DNA of 64,000 bases from a bacterium HR15 (GCA_002898555.1 BEHR01000003.1:28289-92288), one strand, 5' to 3'; shown: positions 40,657 to 51,255, counted from the first letter of the stretch. Program-made: numbers and translations. Notes: a model not told the origin generated them from the letters alone.

Positions 40657-43600
40657 ATGCGCCAGAGTATGGTTGCTGCTGGTCGGAAGGTAATGCTGCT
40701 GATGGTGGTTGCTGGCACGATAGTGGGTTTCGTGAACGCGCAAACACGCCCACGACTTGAACCCAGACCTGTTCCTGCGCCAGTGGATTTCCCTCCTCCC
40801 GCAATCCCCTACATGTTCGGACTGAATATGAACTTCGAACGGGAGGGGTTGAACGGCAATCTTTACCAATATTACTGGTTCAACCCTTCGTTTTTGTATT
40901 ATCTTTTCCTGGATGATATACCTACTTTGGGACTGTATCGTGCCGATTTGCATCTTTTCCCAGTAACCAATGCCCTGTTTGGCAAGCATCTCACGGCAAG
41001 CAATGTGTTCCGCCCGTCCATTCTGCTTGTTAACTATCCGGCACACCGAAACTGGTGGATTTGCGATCTGGATAGTTCAAGTTCTATAGGGGATTATCTC
41101 ATTGAAGATATTTATGATAGTGCTATAAAACGAGTAAAAGAGGTACTTTACTCGCAACCTACCCCTTATCTTATCTGGGAGTTCTTTAACGAGCCTGAAG
41201 CGTTCTATCGATGGCAACCGCACTGGGCCGATCTACGGTGGAATAATGGATGGAATAGTAGCTCTATTAATATAGTCCACAGTTATCCCAAAGTGGCAAT
41301 GGTGCATGCAAAGGCGGTGCGAGATGTCTATAGCAAGCCATTGAAAGCTTTGACGGAGTGTGCTGGCTCCGCTACAGCATGGCAAATACTGCCTCGTCCA
41401 TTGATTCTCGGTGGTGGCTGGGGAAACCCCCAAAGCTCAATCATCGAGGAAGTTCTGCGCTACCAATTTGATCTTTTGTCTGAACTTGAAGATTGGAACA
41501 GCGATATCGATAGGCTAATTGGCAAACACCTTTATGAAGTTGTAGATGGTTTCAGCTTTCATACTTACTCTCCAAGCTTGCTTCCAGATTTTGATCAACT
41601 CTATTATAACCGAATGCGCAGGGTTGTTGTGCGCCATGCCCAGCGATTGATGCCTCTGGTGATGAGCGAACGGGGATATGCTACAGAAAGAGGACTAAGT
41701 TGTTATATTGATGCTGACAATAATGATGGTATTAGATGTAGGCTTAACCCTCCGCCTATCAATATCTATCCTGCCGAGTGCATGCAGGCGAACCAGTTGA
41801 TACGCCGGTACCTCACCGATATGTTCAACGAGGCACGCGGCAGTGTCTTTTACTGTAATGTTGACAAAGCAGATCCTTGTCAGGACGGCGCGGATGCATG
41901 TGATTCAACTCGCCTCGATCCTGAAGAGTTTTTCGGGATTTTCAAAGTGGATACTTCTTCGGGAAATCTCATTCCTAAACAGGCATATCTGGCACTGCGG
42001 CACTTTGTTCAAAGGCTGTATGGGTACGAGTACTTTGCTCGTATCTATCATGACTGGAATGGTGATGGCAGCTATACCATGAGCGATGAATCGGTATGGT
42101 GCCTGGTGTTTCGTCGCTGGAATGCCAGCACCAATCGTTATGATTACGCTCTCGTAGTATGGGCAAGTGGCTTTGCCGCTCCTAACAACATTTCTCTGCC
42201 GACACCACTAACGGGTACGCTACATTATCCTAATGGTGGTGCATGTAATAGTAGCGTTCCGTCATATTTTCGCCGCTGGGACCCGGATAGTTTTGTAGAT
42301 GATCCTTCTTCCCCTCGTTCCACAGTGCAGCTCTGGAGCGGGACAACCTTAGAGACAACCTTAGAGGGACCATACATTATCCATCTTACAGGTGTAGTAC
42401 CGCCATGGATTCGCTGGCGGCTCACGCCGGGCTTCACTGAGGCTGAAGCGCGTCCCGATGGAACAGCGAAAATTGTACTCCGGTTCACGGCGGGCCTGCC
42501 GCCTGGGCAGTATCGCCTCGAACTGCAAGTTGCTCGTCGGCAGGGAACAGGCTCTGGGTATGCGCAGTACTTTTTGACGGCTGATGAAGGTGGAATTAAT
42601 CAAAACATTGTCTTTTCGTTCCCCTGCACACGCGCGGAAGAGGTGAACTTGATACGCGCACGCTTGTCTATATTTGACCCGCTGCGTCGTCTTTGGGTGC
42701 CCTTGCCAGGGGAGCGCTGGGTGCGGGTGTATTTGACGAACCCCATCCGTCTTGATCTACGCCCAATAGAGTCGAGGGTGGATCGCTGGATCTTAGCCGA
42801 AATCAGCCACTTTCCTGGTCCCCGGGATAATAGCTCTCTTAATTGTAATTTAGAATACAAGGTTTATCAAGTTAATTCAGATGGCTCTACAGGAACACTA
42901 TTGTCACAAAGTAGAGGATCAATTTCCTGTGAGAACTCTCGTGAGATACGCAATCAGGTAGCATATGTTATGATACCGACAAATGATAATAGTAGTTCTG
43001 GATACGAAGTTCATGTCAGATTATTATCCCGCTCTGTGCCAGAAGAACCAGAAATCGCTTCTTGGAAACGCAGAATATACTTTTTGGATAAGTTCAATGT
43101 TAATGATGTGAATTGGTCCCAAGATTCTAACACCACCGCATATGATTCCGATCCTTGGCGCCCCCATACCTGGCAACCTACTCAACCTACTCTTGATTGT
43201 AGTAGTAACTCCACAAGGTGTAATTTTAATGTCCAGTACAAGAAAAACGGCAACGATGTTACGGTTCCATTTTATCCCTATTCCTTCCCTTGGAACTGGA
43301 ACTCGTCAACCACCGATTCCCCCAACTGGCAGCTCTACGAGGCAGGGATGTGGCGATATTTAGAACAGAGTAGCGGTAGTAACAACTGCACAGTTGACTC
43401 CATTCCCATCGGTTCCAACCATGTTGACTACTATCGCATGGATTTATGGATATCATTTTTTAATAGTAATTATACTATTGATGCAATTGCACATAACTAC
43501 CCCAGCAAGGAGGCAGACGAGGCGGCGCGTAACACACAACATGTGAATAGCTATAACTATCGTCCGCTGAGTCGAACCAGGCCGGGCTGGCGTTTCATTA

Positions 43601-43791
43601 GCGACATCATCTTCCCTGCCTATTTCGCCATCGCTTGGAAAGTGCCCGATAGCGATGATGCTTTATCTCCCACCTCGTTGAGCGTGAGAATCGGTGGCAC
43701 TCTGCCCAGCTGCGATGGACAATCTCGTTATAACCTCCAGATTGGCACAGGGGGAGTGATCTACATCCCGCTGGAAGACGCCTGGTATTGA
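40657..43791 (+). CDS. Large secreted clan GH-A-like glycoside hydrolase
   Basis: WEFFNEP acid/base, DGFSFHTY, VMSERGY nucleophile, FGIF..PKQAY. Confidence 0.7.
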   Translation: MRQSMVAAGRKVMLLMVVAGTIVGFVNAQTRPRLEPRPVPAPVDFPPPAIPYMFGLNMNFEREGLNGNLYQYYWFNPSFLYYLFLDDIPTLGLYRADLHLFPVTNALFGKHLTASNVFRPSILLVNYPAHRNWWICDLDSSSSIGDYLIEDIYDSAIKRVKEVLYSQPTPYLIWEFFNEPEAFYRWQPHWADLRWNNGWNSSSINIVHSYPKVAMVHAKAVRDVYSKPLKALTECAGSATAWQILPRPLILGGGWGNPQSSIIEEVLRYQFDLLSELEDWNSDIDRLIGKHLYEVVDGFSFHTYSPSLLPDFDQLYYNRMRRVVVRHAQRLMPLVMSERGYATERGLSCYIDADNNDGIRCRLNPPPINIYPAECMQANQLIRRYLTDMFNEARGSVFYCNVDKADPCQDGADACDSTRLDPEEFFGIFKVDTSSGNLIPKQAYLALRHFVQRLYGYEYFARIYHDWNGDGSYTMSDESVWCLVFRRWNASTNRYDYALVVWASGFAAPNNISLPTPLTGTLHYPNGGACNSSVPSYFRRWDPDSFVDDPSSPRSTVQLWSGTTLETTLEGPYIIHLTGVVPPWIRWRLTPGFTEAEARPDGTAKIVLRFTAGLPPGQYRLELQVARRQGTGSGYAQYFLTADEGGINQNIVFSFPCTRAEEVNLIRARLSIFDPLRRLWVPLPGERWVRVYLTNPIRLDLRPIESRVDRWILAEISHFPGPRDNSSLNCNLEYKVYQVNSDGSTGTLLSQSRGSISCENSREIRNQVAYVMIPTNDNSSSGYEVHVRLLSRSVPEEPEIASWKRRIYFLDKFNVNDVNWSQDSNTTAYDSDPWRPHTWQPTQPTLDCSSNSTRCNFNVQYKKNGNDVTVPFYPYSFPWNWNSSTTDSPNWQLYEAGMWRYLEQSSGSNNCTVDSIPIGSNHVDYYRMDLWISFFNSNYTIDAIAHNYPSKEADEAARNTQHVNSYNYRPLSRTRPGWRFISDIIFPAYFAIAWKVPDSDDALSPTSLSVRIGGTLPSCDGQSRYNLQIGTGGVIYIPLEDAWY

Positions 43792-46667: not shown

Positions 46668-47309
46668 ATGCAGAGGGTCTGGTGTATCATCGCGCTGATG
46701 GGGCTGGTTCTGGGAGATGCCGTTGCCCAAACCATTTCCCTGCCTAAGTCCATCACGATGGAGAATGTGGGAGAGGGTTCCAATCCCATCGCCCAGACCA
46801 TCGTGGAAGCCATGCGCGCAGCGACCGGAGCGGACCTGGCAATGTTGGGCGCTGCCTTTCTTGACGAGACGGTGCAGTTCCCTGCGGGGCCGCTCTCGGT
46901 GGACGCGCTCCTGAAAGCCGTGCGCTACCCCGATGATGAGGTGGTGGTGCTGAGCCTCACGGGCGAACAGCTATTGCAGGCGCTGGAGCGCTCCGCGGAA
47001 CTCTATCCCCAGAAAAACAACGCCTTCCTGCAGCTCACGGGTGCCGAGGTGCGCTTCGACCCGAAAGCGGCGCCAGGCAAGCGGATACAGAGCGTGTTCA
47101 TCAGCGGCGCAAAACTGGATCCGAAGCGCACCTACCGAGTGGCAACCATTGCGCCCCTTGCCCGCGGCGCGCTCGGCTACTTCCGTATCTGGGGCAAGGA
47201 GCAAATCAGCACCAGCACGGGACGCAGCCTCGCGGAGGTGTTGCGCGACTACCTGCAGCGCACACGCTCGCTTATCGGTGAACCTGCTTGGGTCGCACAG
47301 GAGAGATAA
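46668..47309 (+). CDS. Secreted 5'-nucleotidase C-terminal-domain-only protein
   Basis: Signal peptide; LTGEQLLQALE, FLQLTG, LDPKRTYRVAT. Confidence 0.8.
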   Translation: MQRVWCIIALMGLVLGDAVAQTISLPKSITMENVGEGSNPIAQTIVEAMRAATGADLAMLGAAFLDETVQFPAGPLSVDALLKAVRYPDDEVVVLSLTGEQLLQALERSAELYPQKNNAFLQLTGAEVRFDPKAAPGKRIQSVFISGAKLDPKRTYRVATIAPLARGALGYFRIWGKEQISTSTGRSLAEVLRDYLQRTRSLIGEPAWVAQER

Positions 47310-47360
47310 GTGGCAATGCGCCTCCCCACCCCGACGAGGGAGCCGCCTTCATCGTTCTGA

Positions 47361-47552
47361 GCACCTCCCGCGCAAACCCCGATTCGCAACCGAACACGAC
47401 GGGTTAGCCACGCGTTTGGAACAATGCATCTCCCGCGCAAACCCCGATTCGCAACCCCCCTGGCCCACGAGTCAAATTAAGCCCGATCGAGGGGAGGTTC
47501 TGAATCGGGACTTGCATTTTGAGTTCGCAATGGGGTATAATAGAGGCGCAGG
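47361..47552 (+). promoter_or_regulatory. CRISPR leader with promoter
   Basis: Duplicated 31-mer at 47361 and 47426; TTGCAT-N18-TATAAT (47512-47541) just before repeat 1. Confidence 0.65.
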
Positions 47553-47735
47553 GTCCAAAGGGACAGCCCCTGCGCAGGGGATTGAAACAAATTGTTGCTT
47601 GCTCAACGGGGTTGGCCTGGGCATGGGATGTCCAAAGGGACAGCCCCTGCGCAGGGGATTGAAACGGTCTTAGCTTCTCTGTACCTCATCGTTGGTTCCG
47701 TCCAAAGGGACAGCCCCTGCGCAGGGGATTGAAAC
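47553..47735 (+). CRISPR. Orphan CRISPR mini-array: 3 identical 36-nt repeats, spacers of 41 and 34 nt
   Basis: GTCCAAAGGGACAGCCCCTGCGCAGGGGATTGAAAC at 47553, 47630 and 47700; CCCCTG/CAGGGG hairpin; ATTGAAAC 3' end. Confidence 0.93.
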
Positions 47736-47798
47736 CTCTCTGCGCAACGGAACCATTCCTCGCATCAGAGAGGTTCTCAGGGTATACTTTAAGCTGAA

Positions 47799-48200
47799 AT
47801 GAAACGCACTGATGAAGTCATACCAGGGTTCGAAGATTTTCTGGCGCAACCGCCCGAATGGGTAGACAACCCTGTCACGCGATTCAGAACGCTGCTGGCA
47901 ATCGCCTCCAACTGCCAAGATACGCCCAGCAAACACCAACCCCAACTGATGATGGATGCACTCGAAAAACTCGCCAACGATGTCCAGCACTTCCCCTTCG
48001 ATGCGGACGACCCCTACAGCCTCCTGTTCGCAGATGATGTCAGCTTCGTGCTTGAGATCGCATACCCCACCGCTATGGCAACCGACCCGCAACGGTTCAA
48101 ACAGATCGCAGCGCAAATCGAAAGCGCGATGCCCACCCCTGAAACGAAGGCGATACTCAAACGGATCGAGAACACCCTGGCTGGTAACGATGCGCAATAA
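47799..48200 (+). CDS. Small acidic hypothetical protein
   Basis: 133-aa ORF; TATACT 10 nt upstream. Confidence 0.65.
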   Translation: MKRTDEVIPGFEDFLAQPPEWVDNPVTRFRTLLAIASNCQDTPSKHQPQLMMDALEKLANDVQHFPFDADDPYSLLFADDVSFVLEIAYPTAMATDPQRFKQIAAQIESAMPTPETKAILKRIENTLAGNDAQ

Positions 48201-48301
48201 CGGGCCGAACCTACCCATGAAACGGCAGGACTTGACTTCTGCGATGCAGGGTCAAAGTCAGTGAGACAGGTGATGTGCGTAGAATCAGCGAGGGTATCCG
48301 C

Positions 48302-49495
48302 ATGCGTGAGGGTTTAGTGAAGGTACTGATTTTACGACGCGACGGGGTGCGCCAGCACTACTGGGTTCGCCCTGATAAGCTGCCGTCGTTCATCCGCGAG
48401 CAGCAGCGTCAGGGCAATACCGTGCTGGGCATGCCGACGCCTGCGCTCCAGATGGCGACGACGCCTGCGCAGCCTGACCCGCAACACGAGCAACAGCTGC
48501 ACCAGCTCTTGGAACAGCTGAAAAGCCGCGATGAGTGGGAGCGTCGTGCAGCCGCGTGGGAGTTAGGCGAGTTGGGCGATCCACGCGCGGTGCAACCACT
48601 CAGCCAAACATTGAGCCAAGATGAGTCCCCGCCTGTGCGTCGCGCAGCAGCACATGCGTTAGGCAAGCTGGGGGATCCACGCGCGGTAGAACCGCTCAGC
48701 AAAGCCGCACTGAACAACGATAAGCACCCCGATGTGCGTGTTGCAGCGGTTGAGGCGTTAGGCAAGCTGGGCGATAGGCGTGCAGTGGAACCACTCAGCA
48801 AAGCACTGATCAACGATGCGAACCGGTCAGTGCGTGCTGCAGCAGCGGAGGCGTTAGGCAGGCTGGGCGACAAACGCGCCGTAGACCCGCTCATCGAGGC
48901 AATGTACGATGAGGAAGTGACTGTGCGTGAAGCAGCAGCGATTGCGTTAGGCGAGCTGGGCGACCCACGCGCCGTAGAACCGCTTATTGAGGCACTGCAC
49001 GATAACAATGTTTATGTGCGTGCTGCAGCAGCGGAGGCGTTAGGCAAGCTGGGCGACCCACGCGCCACCGAACCGCTCATCGACACGCTGCGCCACGATG
49101 AGGAATGGACTGTGCGTGCTGCTGCAGCTCATGCGTTAGCCGAGCTGGGCGACAAGCGCGCCGTAGACCCGCTCACCTTAGCCGTCTTTGAAGATGCCGA
49201 TCGGGGAGTGCGCAAGGCAGCCATCAAGGCGCTGACTACGATGGTGTTCAGTGAGGGGGAGGCGTGGAAGCCAGCCGAAGAGACCCTGTACAGGCTCCTC
49301 GGCTCGAACTTCGACGAGCAGCTCGTGCTCGCGGCGCTGGACACGCTCTCCGCCTATACAGGTCATCCGAGGATTCGTGGTGCGTTGCGTGAATTGCTGT
49401 ATGATCTCGCCAAGTTTGCACGCAGCGAGCAGGTACGGGAGCGTGCGCGGGCGCTCTTTCAAGCGATTCCTTCTGAGGAGACGGCAGTTTCGTAG
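48302..49495 (+). CDS. PBS-lyase-type HEAT-repeat protein with shared N-terminal module
   Basis: 7 full + 1 partial VRxAAAxALGxLGDxRAVEPL repeats; start may be 48275. Confidence 0.88.
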   Translation: MREGLVKVLILRRDGVRQHYWVRPDKLPSFIREQQRQGNTVLGMPTPALQMATTPAQPDPQHEQQLHQLLEQLKSRDEWERRAAAWELGELGDPRAVQPLSQTLSQDESPPVRRAAAHALGKLGDPRAVEPLSKAALNNDKHPDVRVAAVEALGKLGDRRAVEPLSKALINDANRSVRAAAAEALGRLGDKRAVDPLIEAMYDEEVTVREAAAIALGELGDPRAVEPLIEALHDNNVYVRAAAAEALGKLGDPRATEPLIDTLRHDEEWTVRAAAAHALAELGDKRAVDPLTLAVFEDADRGVRKAAIKALTTMVFSEGEAWKPAEETLYRLLGSNFDEQLVLAALDTLSAYTGHPRIRGALRELLYDLAKFARSEQVRERARALFQAIPSEETAVS

Positions 49496-49503
49496 AATCG
49501 AGC

Positions 49504-51120
49504 ATGCCGACCAGTATGCCTCCGCGACCAGGCTTAGTGAGCGTGCTGATACTCCGTCGGGACGGGGTACGGCAGCATTACTGGGTAAAGCCTGAGGGTC
49601 TGCAGGCGTTCATCCGTGCGCAGCAGCGCAAGGGCAATACCGTGCTGAACATGCCTGAACTCCAGCCCATGCTCCAGACCATGCAGCAGCCGATGCTGGA
49701 GGCAAGGCTGCAGCGTGGCTCAGAGCCACTCAGGACACCTGCGGAAGAGCCAACCGCACCAGCTGCTCCCTCTGCGGAAGAGCGTGGCAGCACCGCTGCG
49801 GGGCAGCAAGGGGATATAGTAGAAATCGGACAAGGCGATGATTCCATCTTTGTCTTAAGGAAATACAGGCGATTGTACGAGCAGATGCGCTCCTACCATC
49901 CTGATGCGAGCAAGGTGCTGCTGGCGATGCTGACCAAACGCGCCGATCCAACCCGCACGCTCAGCGCAGGCTACCCCATCGCGCTCTGGGGCCCACCGGG
50001 TGAGGGCAAGACGACCCTGTTCCGCTTACTGAGCCAAATGCCTGATTCCCCGTTCGAAGTGGTCGTCATACCAGCCAGTTCGTTGATGCACGCGGGCGAG
50101 ATTTTCGGTGTACCTGTCACCAAGACAACGGAATCGGGTGATATCGTACTGACCTACGCTCTGCGGGAAGAATTCTCCCCTGATAGGCTGCGTCGCCTCC
50201 GTGAGGAGGGGAAGGTGCTGGTGGTTGTACTGGACGAACTCTTCTTAGCGAGCGATGAGGTCAAGGGGCAAATGCAGACCTTCCTCACCGAGTACCGAAT
50301 CTCAGGTATCAAACCTGAGGATCAGCCACCCTTGCTCCTCGTCGCGACGGGCAACCCTGAAGCAGGTACGGATATGACCACTCCCTTCGCTGACCGATTC
50401 GTGCATCTCCCCTATCGTGGCACGGGAACCAGCCCAGAATTTAGCCCCCACAAGTCAAAACCGCTCTCTCCAGAGGCGCGACAGACTGAAAGCCAAATTA
50501 GACAGTCTCTGAGAGAGATGATAGCAGGGCGTAGACCAAGCGCGATGAGTACGGAAAGTGAGGAAGAGTTCGCCTATGAGAAGGAAATCGGGGCACCGCG
50601 TTTTCCCATCAGTGCGCTTGAGCTGCGTTCGGCATTCATCCATCCCGACCGTCGACGAGTTCCCTCAGATGAATTACTGAGACGCGCCAATATGGTTAAT
50701 TATAAATTCGTGCGTCTTGTGATCGATCGTTTCTATTTCACGCACCAATCGGTTACGAATGCGTTGGAAGCATCGCGTTCCCGTCCTCCGAACCCCCATG
50801 CGGACATCGTTGCTCTGGGGCTTGATCCGAACCAGCGAGCAAGCTTGTTTATGGCTCCCACCTTGCGTCGCATGTTCATGATGGATGACATAATCACATC
50901 CGCGCTCACGATGGGGCTGACGCCCGATGATGACGAGCTATCGGATATTATAGTGCGCAATCTGGGGTATGAGTGCGGCACGGGGCTTCTGCAAGAGCTT
51001 AGGCACGCCATAGAGGAGCTGGGCAAGCCAATGTCCGAAGAGGAAACCATTATCAAGGGACTGATACAGGCACAACTGCCCGATGATATTTGGGATTTGC
51101 CTGGGCTCAGTGAACCTTGA
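49504..51120 (+). CDS. MoxR/dynein-related AAA+ ATPase with shared N-terminal module
   Basis: LWGPPGEGKT Walker A, VVVLDE Walker B, ATGN sensor 1, DRF Arg finger. Confidence 0.85.
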   Translation: MPTSMPPRPGLVSVLILRRDGVRQHYWVKPEGLQAFIRAQQRKGNTVLNMPELQPMLQTMQQPMLEARLQRGSEPLRTPAEEPTAPAAPSAEERGSTAAGQQGDIVEIGQGDDSIFVLRKYRRLYEQMRSYHPDASKVLLAMLTKRADPTRTLSAGYPIALWGPPGEGKTTLFRLLSQMPDSPFEVVVIPASSLMHAGEIFGVPVTKTTESGDIVLTYALREEFSPDRLRRLREEGKVLVVVLDELFLASDEVKGQMQTFLTEYRISGIKPEDQPPLLLVATGNPEAGTDMTTPFADRFVHLPYRGTGTSPEFSPHKSKPLSPEARQTESQIRQSLREMIAGRRPSAMSTESEEEFAYEKEIGAPRFPISALELRSAFIHPDRRRVPSDELLRRANMVNYKFVRLVIDRFYFTHQSVTNALEASRSRPPNPHADIVALGLDPNQRASLFMAPTLRRMFMMDDIITSALTMGLTPDDDELSDIIVRNLGYECGTGLLQELRHAIEELGKPMSEEETIIKGLIQAQLPDDIWDLPGLSEP

Positions 51121-51127
51121 TCAAACG

Positions 51128-51156
51128 GTAGGGGCGACCCACCGGGTCGCCCCTAC
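51128..51156. repeat. REP palindrome, possible terminator
   Basis: gtaggggcgaccc acc gggtcgcccctac. Confidence 0.7.
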
Positions 51157-51255
51157 TTGTGGTGAGGGTATTCGAATTCATCAGCGGCACAAAAATGAGC
51201 AGATTCTACTCACCACTCGCCACCTCGAGACGCGGTAGGGTATGATACACTCACT

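Follow-up and report, generated by a model that had tools for sequence, protein, structure and literature searches.

A 44-residue module shared by two unrelated proteins of a bacterial genome, and its candidate role as a head-loading label of tailed phages

Two unrelated proteins encoded in a 64,000-nucleotide stretch of DNA from bacterium HR15 (GCA_002898555.1 BEHR01000003.1:28289-92288; referred to below as the window) were found to begin with the same 44-residue module, which is a real, undescribed domain. Judging from sequence relationships, we lean toward the view that the module is a portable address label that directs unrelated proteins into the head of a tailed phage during its assembly, because it is portable, occurs in several copies per phage, is fused to three head proteins, lies in head-gene neighborhoods, is joined to cargo of head-packaged types, and is present in one protein reported from virions. 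The features of the locus are listed in Table 1.

Translation of the two copies gave 34 identical residues out of 44, as the preliminary description had stated, and 99 of 132 bases were the same. Codon comparison showed 20 identical, 14 synonymous, and 10 non-synonymous codons; identity at the three codon positions was 37, 37, and 25 of 44, with divergence mostly at third positions, and the 15-residue core was indeed invariant in the face of 9 synonymous changes. When copy 1 was compared by BLASTP with the 80,525 six-frame frames of the genome, copy 2 was matched with an E-value of 2e-18 and the next match had an E-value of 1.1; therefore, the likeness of the two copies is not due to chance. 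The genome contains two full copies only, and a word-index search with copy 1 returned itself as the sole match.

The two cargoes were unrelated, with HEAT_2/HEAT_PBS repeats (E 3e-69) in the protein carrying copy 1 and AAA_5 (E 1e-9; 38.6 bits, over the cut-off) in that carrying copy 2. The latter has the features of MoxR AAA+ proteins as read in the sequence, including Walker A/B, a sensor-1 Asn, and an Arg-finger-like motif. Among 8000 candidates scored, this ATPase had no relative besides itself, and its single-sequence structure model was poor (pLDDT 42). Both copies are followed by Q/P/A-rich linkers, have net charges of +5 and +6, and display no hydrophobic signal-peptide core by eye, in agreement with earlier remarks on the linkers and on the lack of a Sec or Tat signal. 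These results show that the module recurs under purifying selection on unrelated cargo.

Table 1. Features of the module locus in the window
Feature	Position	Strand	Remarks
Strain-specific insert between 5'-nucleotidase-like gene and DUF1559 gene	47300..51238 (about)		Absent at the same site in three congeners
CRISPR leader	47431..47552	+	Common to arrays on contigs C35 and C22
CRISPR mini-array	47553..47735	+	Three identical 36-nt repeats, spacers of 41 and 34 nt
Orphan ORF, 133 aa	47799..48200	+	Without module; cluster of one
397-aa protein	48302..49495	+	Module, Q/P/A linker, PBS-lyase-type HEAT repeats
Module copy 1, 44 aa	48305..48436	+	Predicted strands 5-10 and 16-21, helix 23-35, strand 39-42
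534-aa protein (538 aa from upstream ATG at 49504)	49516..51120	+	Module, linker, MoxR-like AAA+ domain, helical C-terminus
Module copy 2	49525..49656	+	49534-49557 and 49595-49629 match CRISPR-type records elsewhere in the genome
GC-rich palindrome just past last gene	51128..51156		Seen in the sequence; presumably REP-like or terminator-like

Both module genes lie inside a 3.9-kb insert. At the same site, three congeners have 20 nt (G002), about 115 nt (G001), and about 800 nt of other sequence (G003), and the region holding the insert's three genes (47736-51150) was found in none of 60 relatives. Third-position GC was 0.62-0.65 in these three genes versus 0.68-0.76 in four flanking genes. 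The 133-aa orphan ORF matched no Pfam or PHROG family. Six queries covering portal, capsid, terminase, protease, and vWA proteins gave no match in the genome, and since no head genes were found with them, the insert is not an intact prophage of the types queried. No vWA partner gene is present in the insert next to the ATPase gene, and tblastn with the partner encoded by phage contig G575 (see below) gave no match in the genome. The host belongs to the phylum Armatimonadota, in which the module was clearly matched in 1 of 400 genomes, with 3 further weak matches; it was found in none of the 60 relatives and none of 227 genomes of the class. Elsewhere in the window, a 1044-aa ORF (40657-43791) in a low-GC stretch (0.46-0.50 over 40-44 kb) is probably a separate acquired gene.

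The repeat of the mini-array is an ordinary host CRISPR repeat found in four arrays of the genome; together with its leader, it also heads the arrays on C22 and C35, the latter adjoining a Cas1-containing frame. Spacer 31 of 32 in the array on contig C15 encodes M-R-E-G-L-V-S-V-L-V-L-R, and matched each window copy at 29 of 39 bases (for all spacers, the median best match was 0.55 and the next best 0.63) and copy 2 at 23 of 24 contiguous bases (49534-49557). In hot-spring run X1, one contig links the end of the HEAT gene to a module gene that starts with the first 15 spacer bases and continues from 49534 onward; therefore, the target of this spacer exists as a natural variant, on the evidence of one run from one study that is possibly close to the source of this genome. 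In the same run, 17 short contigs with differing letters stack on the module, where depth gives no copy number; this is compatible with several paralogues. On contig C16, a 35-nt piece identical to copy 2 at 34 of 35 bases (49595-49629; best elsewhere 24/35, copy 1 aside) sits between perfect 31-nt direct repeats with a period of 66, and likely arose by off-target spacer integration. The C15 spacer and the C16 insertion are independent-looking CRISPR records of the module. Since module DNA is present in a spacer of the host and again in a spacer-like insertion, the source of the module genes was an invader. These results show that the two window genes are foreign DNA, relatives of which were sampled by the host CRISPR system; this DNA is probably viral. 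No host spacer matched any of 12 viral loci. The locus is a record of kilobases of invader DNA taken up by the host behind a CRISPR array, and two spacer-type records of the module lie at other sites of the genome.

Several other observations were made on the arrays. Two repeat families were seen on contigs C3, C22, C25, C35, C7, C12, C15, C16, C19, and C53, and near-identical units of leader plus array, some with 2-3 repeats only, are scattered at many genome sites. Cas1 on C35 (917-1753) is part of a 901-residue frame adjoining an array with the window repeat, and the upstream part of this frame has, by eye, what we take to be Cas6- and reverse-transcriptase-type regions. Past the last repeat of a 31-repeat array on C16 (47202-48000), about 700 bases of foreign-looking ORFs hold the 35-nt module piece; foreign DNA is therefore seen at the trailer end of an array both in the window and on C16. 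Assignment of the C16 flank to a virion-morphogenesis protein gene was dropped for lack of tblastn support.

The AlphaFold2 model of the module displayed a beta-beta-alpha-beta fold with a pLDDT of 93. The module had no sequence match in Pfam, PHROG, NCBIfam, or PDB, the PDB search giving chance helix matches only, and thus did not turn out to be a characterised Pfam domain, an outcome the preliminary description had considered. The ESM Atlas contained no usable match to the module of carrier P0008, and fold searches gave nothing at E<=0.001 or Z>=8. Below significance, phycobilisome linker domains occupied the top rows of both fold searches (Foldseek E 0.02; VIA Z 6.0, rmsd 2.3, 43 aligned). 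Linker domains of the CpcD/ApcC type have the same order of strands and helix (TM about 0.8), but no sequence profile match to the module, and the likeness is likely that of a common small fold. Weak likeness was also seen to the ssDNA-binding protein DdrB (Foldseek E 0.34, VIA Z 5.7; below significance) and to T7 Gp2 and YkzG. Prediction of a module homodimer scored 0.04 versus a mark of 0.42. No description of the module was found in the literature searched, in which a short motif is hard to find and subscription papers are missing.

A profile built from four sequences was searched against 1.84 billion representatives. Of its 17 matches, 4 were the queries themselves, 12 were new carriers, and 1 was a false match of low complexity. 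The two window copies are therefore not alone. Exact-motif scans gave no match, and tblastn of copy 1 against a phage collection gave no relevant one. Four candidates (L009, L021, L024, and P0019) were dropped as chance matches. Over the 44 columns of the alignment, V7, R11, D13, G14, Q17, Y19, and W20 are invariant in all 16 carriers. The module was joined to unrelated cargo in 16 of the 17 matches, which supports the earlier suggestion of a portable module on phage-associated proteins; its N-terminal position, as described, holds for both window proteins, but internal and C-terminal positions also occur in the family.

Fusion partners in the new carriers included portal, MuF, prohead protease, ADP-ribosyltransferase (ART)-like, metallopeptidase, and vWA domains. 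Head proteins were fused in 3 of the 14 carriers outside the window: P0010 (MuF-module-ART-like, the MuF match being under cut-off), P0013 (prohead protease-module), and P0020 (portal-module-...-MuF). The remaining architectures were module-ART-like in P0011 and P0015 (by eye, from resemblance to P0010), module-zincin in P0016 (by its HExxH motif) and P0018, module-peptidase-vWA in P0014, methyltransferase-DUF5661-module in P0006, whose gene lies between minor-head and protease genes, module-helical domain in P0008, P0009, and P0012, and a C-terminal module on small proteins in P0007 and P0017. Of the 10 carriers in which the module is internal, 7 have a K-[A/G/S] dipeptide, which we take to be a prohead-protease cut site, within 25 residues upstream of the module (background 0-0.64 per 25 residues); the dipeptide was absent from the 6 carriers starting with the module, both window proteins included. 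In another Armatimonadota genome (L023:366-785), the module forms the C-terminus of a 139-aa ORF just upstream of BREX-looking genes; the genes beside P0007 resemble those of BREX systems.

Shorter variants, consisting of the hairpin without the helix and third strand of the module, were found in phages. A relaxed motif scan of viral contigs gave 19 contigs, and we judged 9 of them real. The other 10 were not used: 4 carried copies of one protein matched weakly at an internal site, 2 were weak, and 4 had no score. The conserved hairpin pattern is V-x-I/V-x-R-x-D-G-x-x-Q-H/T-Y-W, and the variants begin 2-5 genes per phage; tagged proteins numbered 2 in the window and, as hairpin-only forms, 4 in G575, 4 in L028, and 5 in G578. 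Six of the viral contigs have 60% GC and 2-4 tandem HEAT-like genes, each started by a hairpin; they are apparently variants of one virus population and are to be counted once. One of the six, G575, has terminase, portal, Mu-like protease, and major capsid genes, after which come genes for a MoxR-like ATPase, a peptidase-vWA protein, and two HEAT-like proteins, all with hairpins. The ATPase and peptidase-vWA proteins each start with a longer hairpin variant, and the tagged HEAT genes are on the strand opposite to the capsid operon. With tagged MoxR, vWA, and HEAT genes after the capsid genes, G575 carries the cargo set of the window in a head module.

In the complete phage G578 (70.5 kb), the hairpin is near the start of 5 unrelated proteins, including an RNase Z-like enzyme and a CCA/poly(A)-polymerase-like enzyme, the gene for the latter being directly upstream of the protease gene. 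The hairpin was also observed on an ART-like protein (by eye) encoded after portal and minor-head-like genes in L043, at the start of the YungSlug PARP and its LysYB1 counterpart, whose genes are directly upstream of the portal gene, in phiMa gp19, and in the DarB-like Gp2 of Thermus Lalka phages, where it spans residues 102-123 in Lalka27a. Mass fingerprinting reportedly places Lalka27a Gp2 among the minor components of the virion (10.64898/2026.04.20.719267). Lvh, the other large virion protein of Lalka, has no hairpin. A profile of 12 hairpin variants put the window copies in the top two places among 80,525 frames (E 5e-4; next 0.22). With a profile made without Lalka, Gp2 stood alone among 84 Lalka proteins (E 1e-5; next 0.38). 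These reciprocal profiles appear to tie the hairpin variants to the window copies through a link of about 20 residues, which is partly circular in that several variants were recruited with a window-derived pattern.

If the module is a head-loading label, the conserved hairpin would bind an inner procapsid component, such as the scaffold, the inner face of the capsid, or the portal, and the flexible Q/P/A linker would leave the cargo free. The cargo could then act in head maturation, as for the MoxR ATPase with a vWA partner, or be delivered with the DNA, as for ART-like, peptidase, tRNA-repair, and DarB-like enzymes; the order of these events and any protease step are suppositions of ours. The two window genes would be a piece of such a phage left stranded in the chromosome. 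Since the queries used revealed neither head genes nor a vWA partner, the label in this chromosome probably has nothing to address unless a related phage infects.

Comparison with known systems placed the module in neither of two groups by the tests made, those of T4 and P1 signals and of MuF, portal, and protease carriers, and it would work like the former. The capsid targeting sequence (CTS) of T4 internal proteins and the P1 DarB signal are likewise short, N-terminal, portable elements on unrelated cargo, as far as the accessible text goes (PMC9024508), with head loading as the job proposed here. The present element differs in being a folded 44-residue domain or a hairpin of about 20 residues, in occurring also at internal and C-terminal positions and on structural head proteins, and in being a shared sequence, whereas no consensus is reported for the P1 Dar N-termini in the accessible part of the same paper (PMC9024508). 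ART, zincin peptidase, and methyltransferase types are described as head-packaged effectors, and the MuF (PF04233), portal, and protease fusions and polyvalent proteins resemble the module carriers in cargo spectrum (ART, zincin peptidase, methylase-helicase) and head-gene context, according to the accessible portions of PMC5512222 and PMC9503650. In P0010, the module sits between MuF and the ART-like domain. However, it matches no Pfam family, also occurs without MuF at the start of cargo, and is carried by several genes per phage; in a MuF/LPD profile test, 0 of 16 members reached a curated Pfam, PHROG, or NCBIfam match (best E 0.003-0.03, single members).

The window ATPase is AAA_5/MoxR-like, as in the phage pairs of MoxR AAA+ and peptidase-vWA chaperones (PMC7824862, PMC7911831), and is 25% identical to the G575 ATPase over 188 residues (E 2e-7). 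As in these pairs, P0014 and the G575 partner are peptidase-vWA proteins, the latter being adjacent to its ATPase; the accessible text of those two papers makes no mention of an N-terminal module shared by the partners. The Herelleviridae virion structural protein phrog_1917 has a similar-looking hairpin and was matched by the N-terminus of the YungSlug PARP (E 1.4e-4), but by 0 members of the 16-sequence alignment, and its hairpin had an E-value of about 1-2 with our profile.

Several points stand against head loading. Of the 14 full-module carriers, 10 show neither a head-protein fusion nor a visible head-gene context. A different signal may package Gp2, a DarB-like protein whose hairpin spans residues 102-123, whereas in P1 the first 30 residues of DarB direct its packaging (PMC9024508). 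The basic, aromatic hairpin could equally bind nucleic acid, and the main rival is that its Arg, Lys, Tyr, and Trp residues bind phage DNA or RNA, the cargo being co-packaged, co-ejected, or held on the genome in the cell. This reading, which is not exclusive of head loading, is favored by the net charge, by the invariant R, Q, Y, and W, by the weak likeness to DdrB, and by several cargoes that act on nucleic acids (DarB-like, RNase Z-like, CCA-like); we regard it as unlikely, with fold matches under significance and with portal, MuF, and protease fusions and HEAT or vWA cargo that require no DNA tether. Improbable in our view is a co-assembly tag by which MoxR ATPase, vWA adaptor, and HEAT proteins meet each other or a common phage scaffold in the cytoplasm, independently of the head. 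The joint tagging of these proteins in G575, and partly in the window and P0014, and the protein-binding nature of the phycobilisome linker domains that gave the best fold matches would suit it, but those matches are not significant, and portal, protease, PARP, and tRNA-repair carriers make no single plausible complex.

Docking to one conserved host machine, e.g., RNA polymerase, to which effectors would be brought, is quite improbable: the fold has the weak likeness to T7 Gp2 and YkzG mentioned above, but the carriers infect hosts as distant as Armatimonadota, Thermus, and Bacillus, and head structural proteins carry the module. The mini-array, lying directly upstream of the module genes on the same strand, raises a further alternative in which the module binds its repeat RNA and the proteins are its effectors. 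Two complete module-bearing phages, G578 and Lalka, also have arrays of their own. Yet the repeat and leader belong to the host, the window repeat was present in 0 of 18 loci of other module-bearing records, and the repeats of the G578 and Lalka arrays are unrelated to it, these phage arrays having a TnpB/Cas12-like gene of their own (partly by eye), so that this alternative is scarcely credible and the binding to the repeat RNA hairpin proposed earlier is unsupported. Among the four functions put forward in the preliminary description, capsid loading best fits the fusions and gene neighborhoods.

To our knowledge, few capsid-loading signals have been established experimentally (T4, P1). A shared, folded, sequence-recognizable label would let injected anti-defense proteins be listed directly from genomes, and a tagged MoxR/vWA/HEAT set would be an unusual cargo. 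A wider proposal, which we hold only tentatively, is that the module is the folded form of a widespread unnamed family of hairpin labels. Phages whose hosts include Armatimonadota, Thermus, and Bacillus might use these labels to pack a whole set of proteins into the head for delivery at infection; this kit would possibly comprise a MoxR-vWA remodeling machine, HEAT proteins, ADP-ribosyltransferases, tRNA-repair enzymes, and DarB-like proteins. Sequence alone would then suffice to predict virion cargo from the label, and the label could serve to bring foreign proteins into thermostable capsids.

Some further features of the hairpin-bearing phages were observed. G578 (L050:14549-17260) contains a TnpB/Cas12-like ORF (by eye) followed directly by a CRISPR-like array of six 36-nt repeats. 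In Lalka8 (L058:14675-18890), vWA, hypothetical, and AAA genes form a triad between minor head and terminase genes that resembles the PrkA type; the vWA and AAA genes, both without the hairpin, were not used as support. Other short basic-aromatic N-terminal motifs were seen on Lalka gp4 (L058:7672-8955) and on an SNF2-type helicase encoded between terminase and portal in G575 (L054:1536-4700), and these may represent further tag families.
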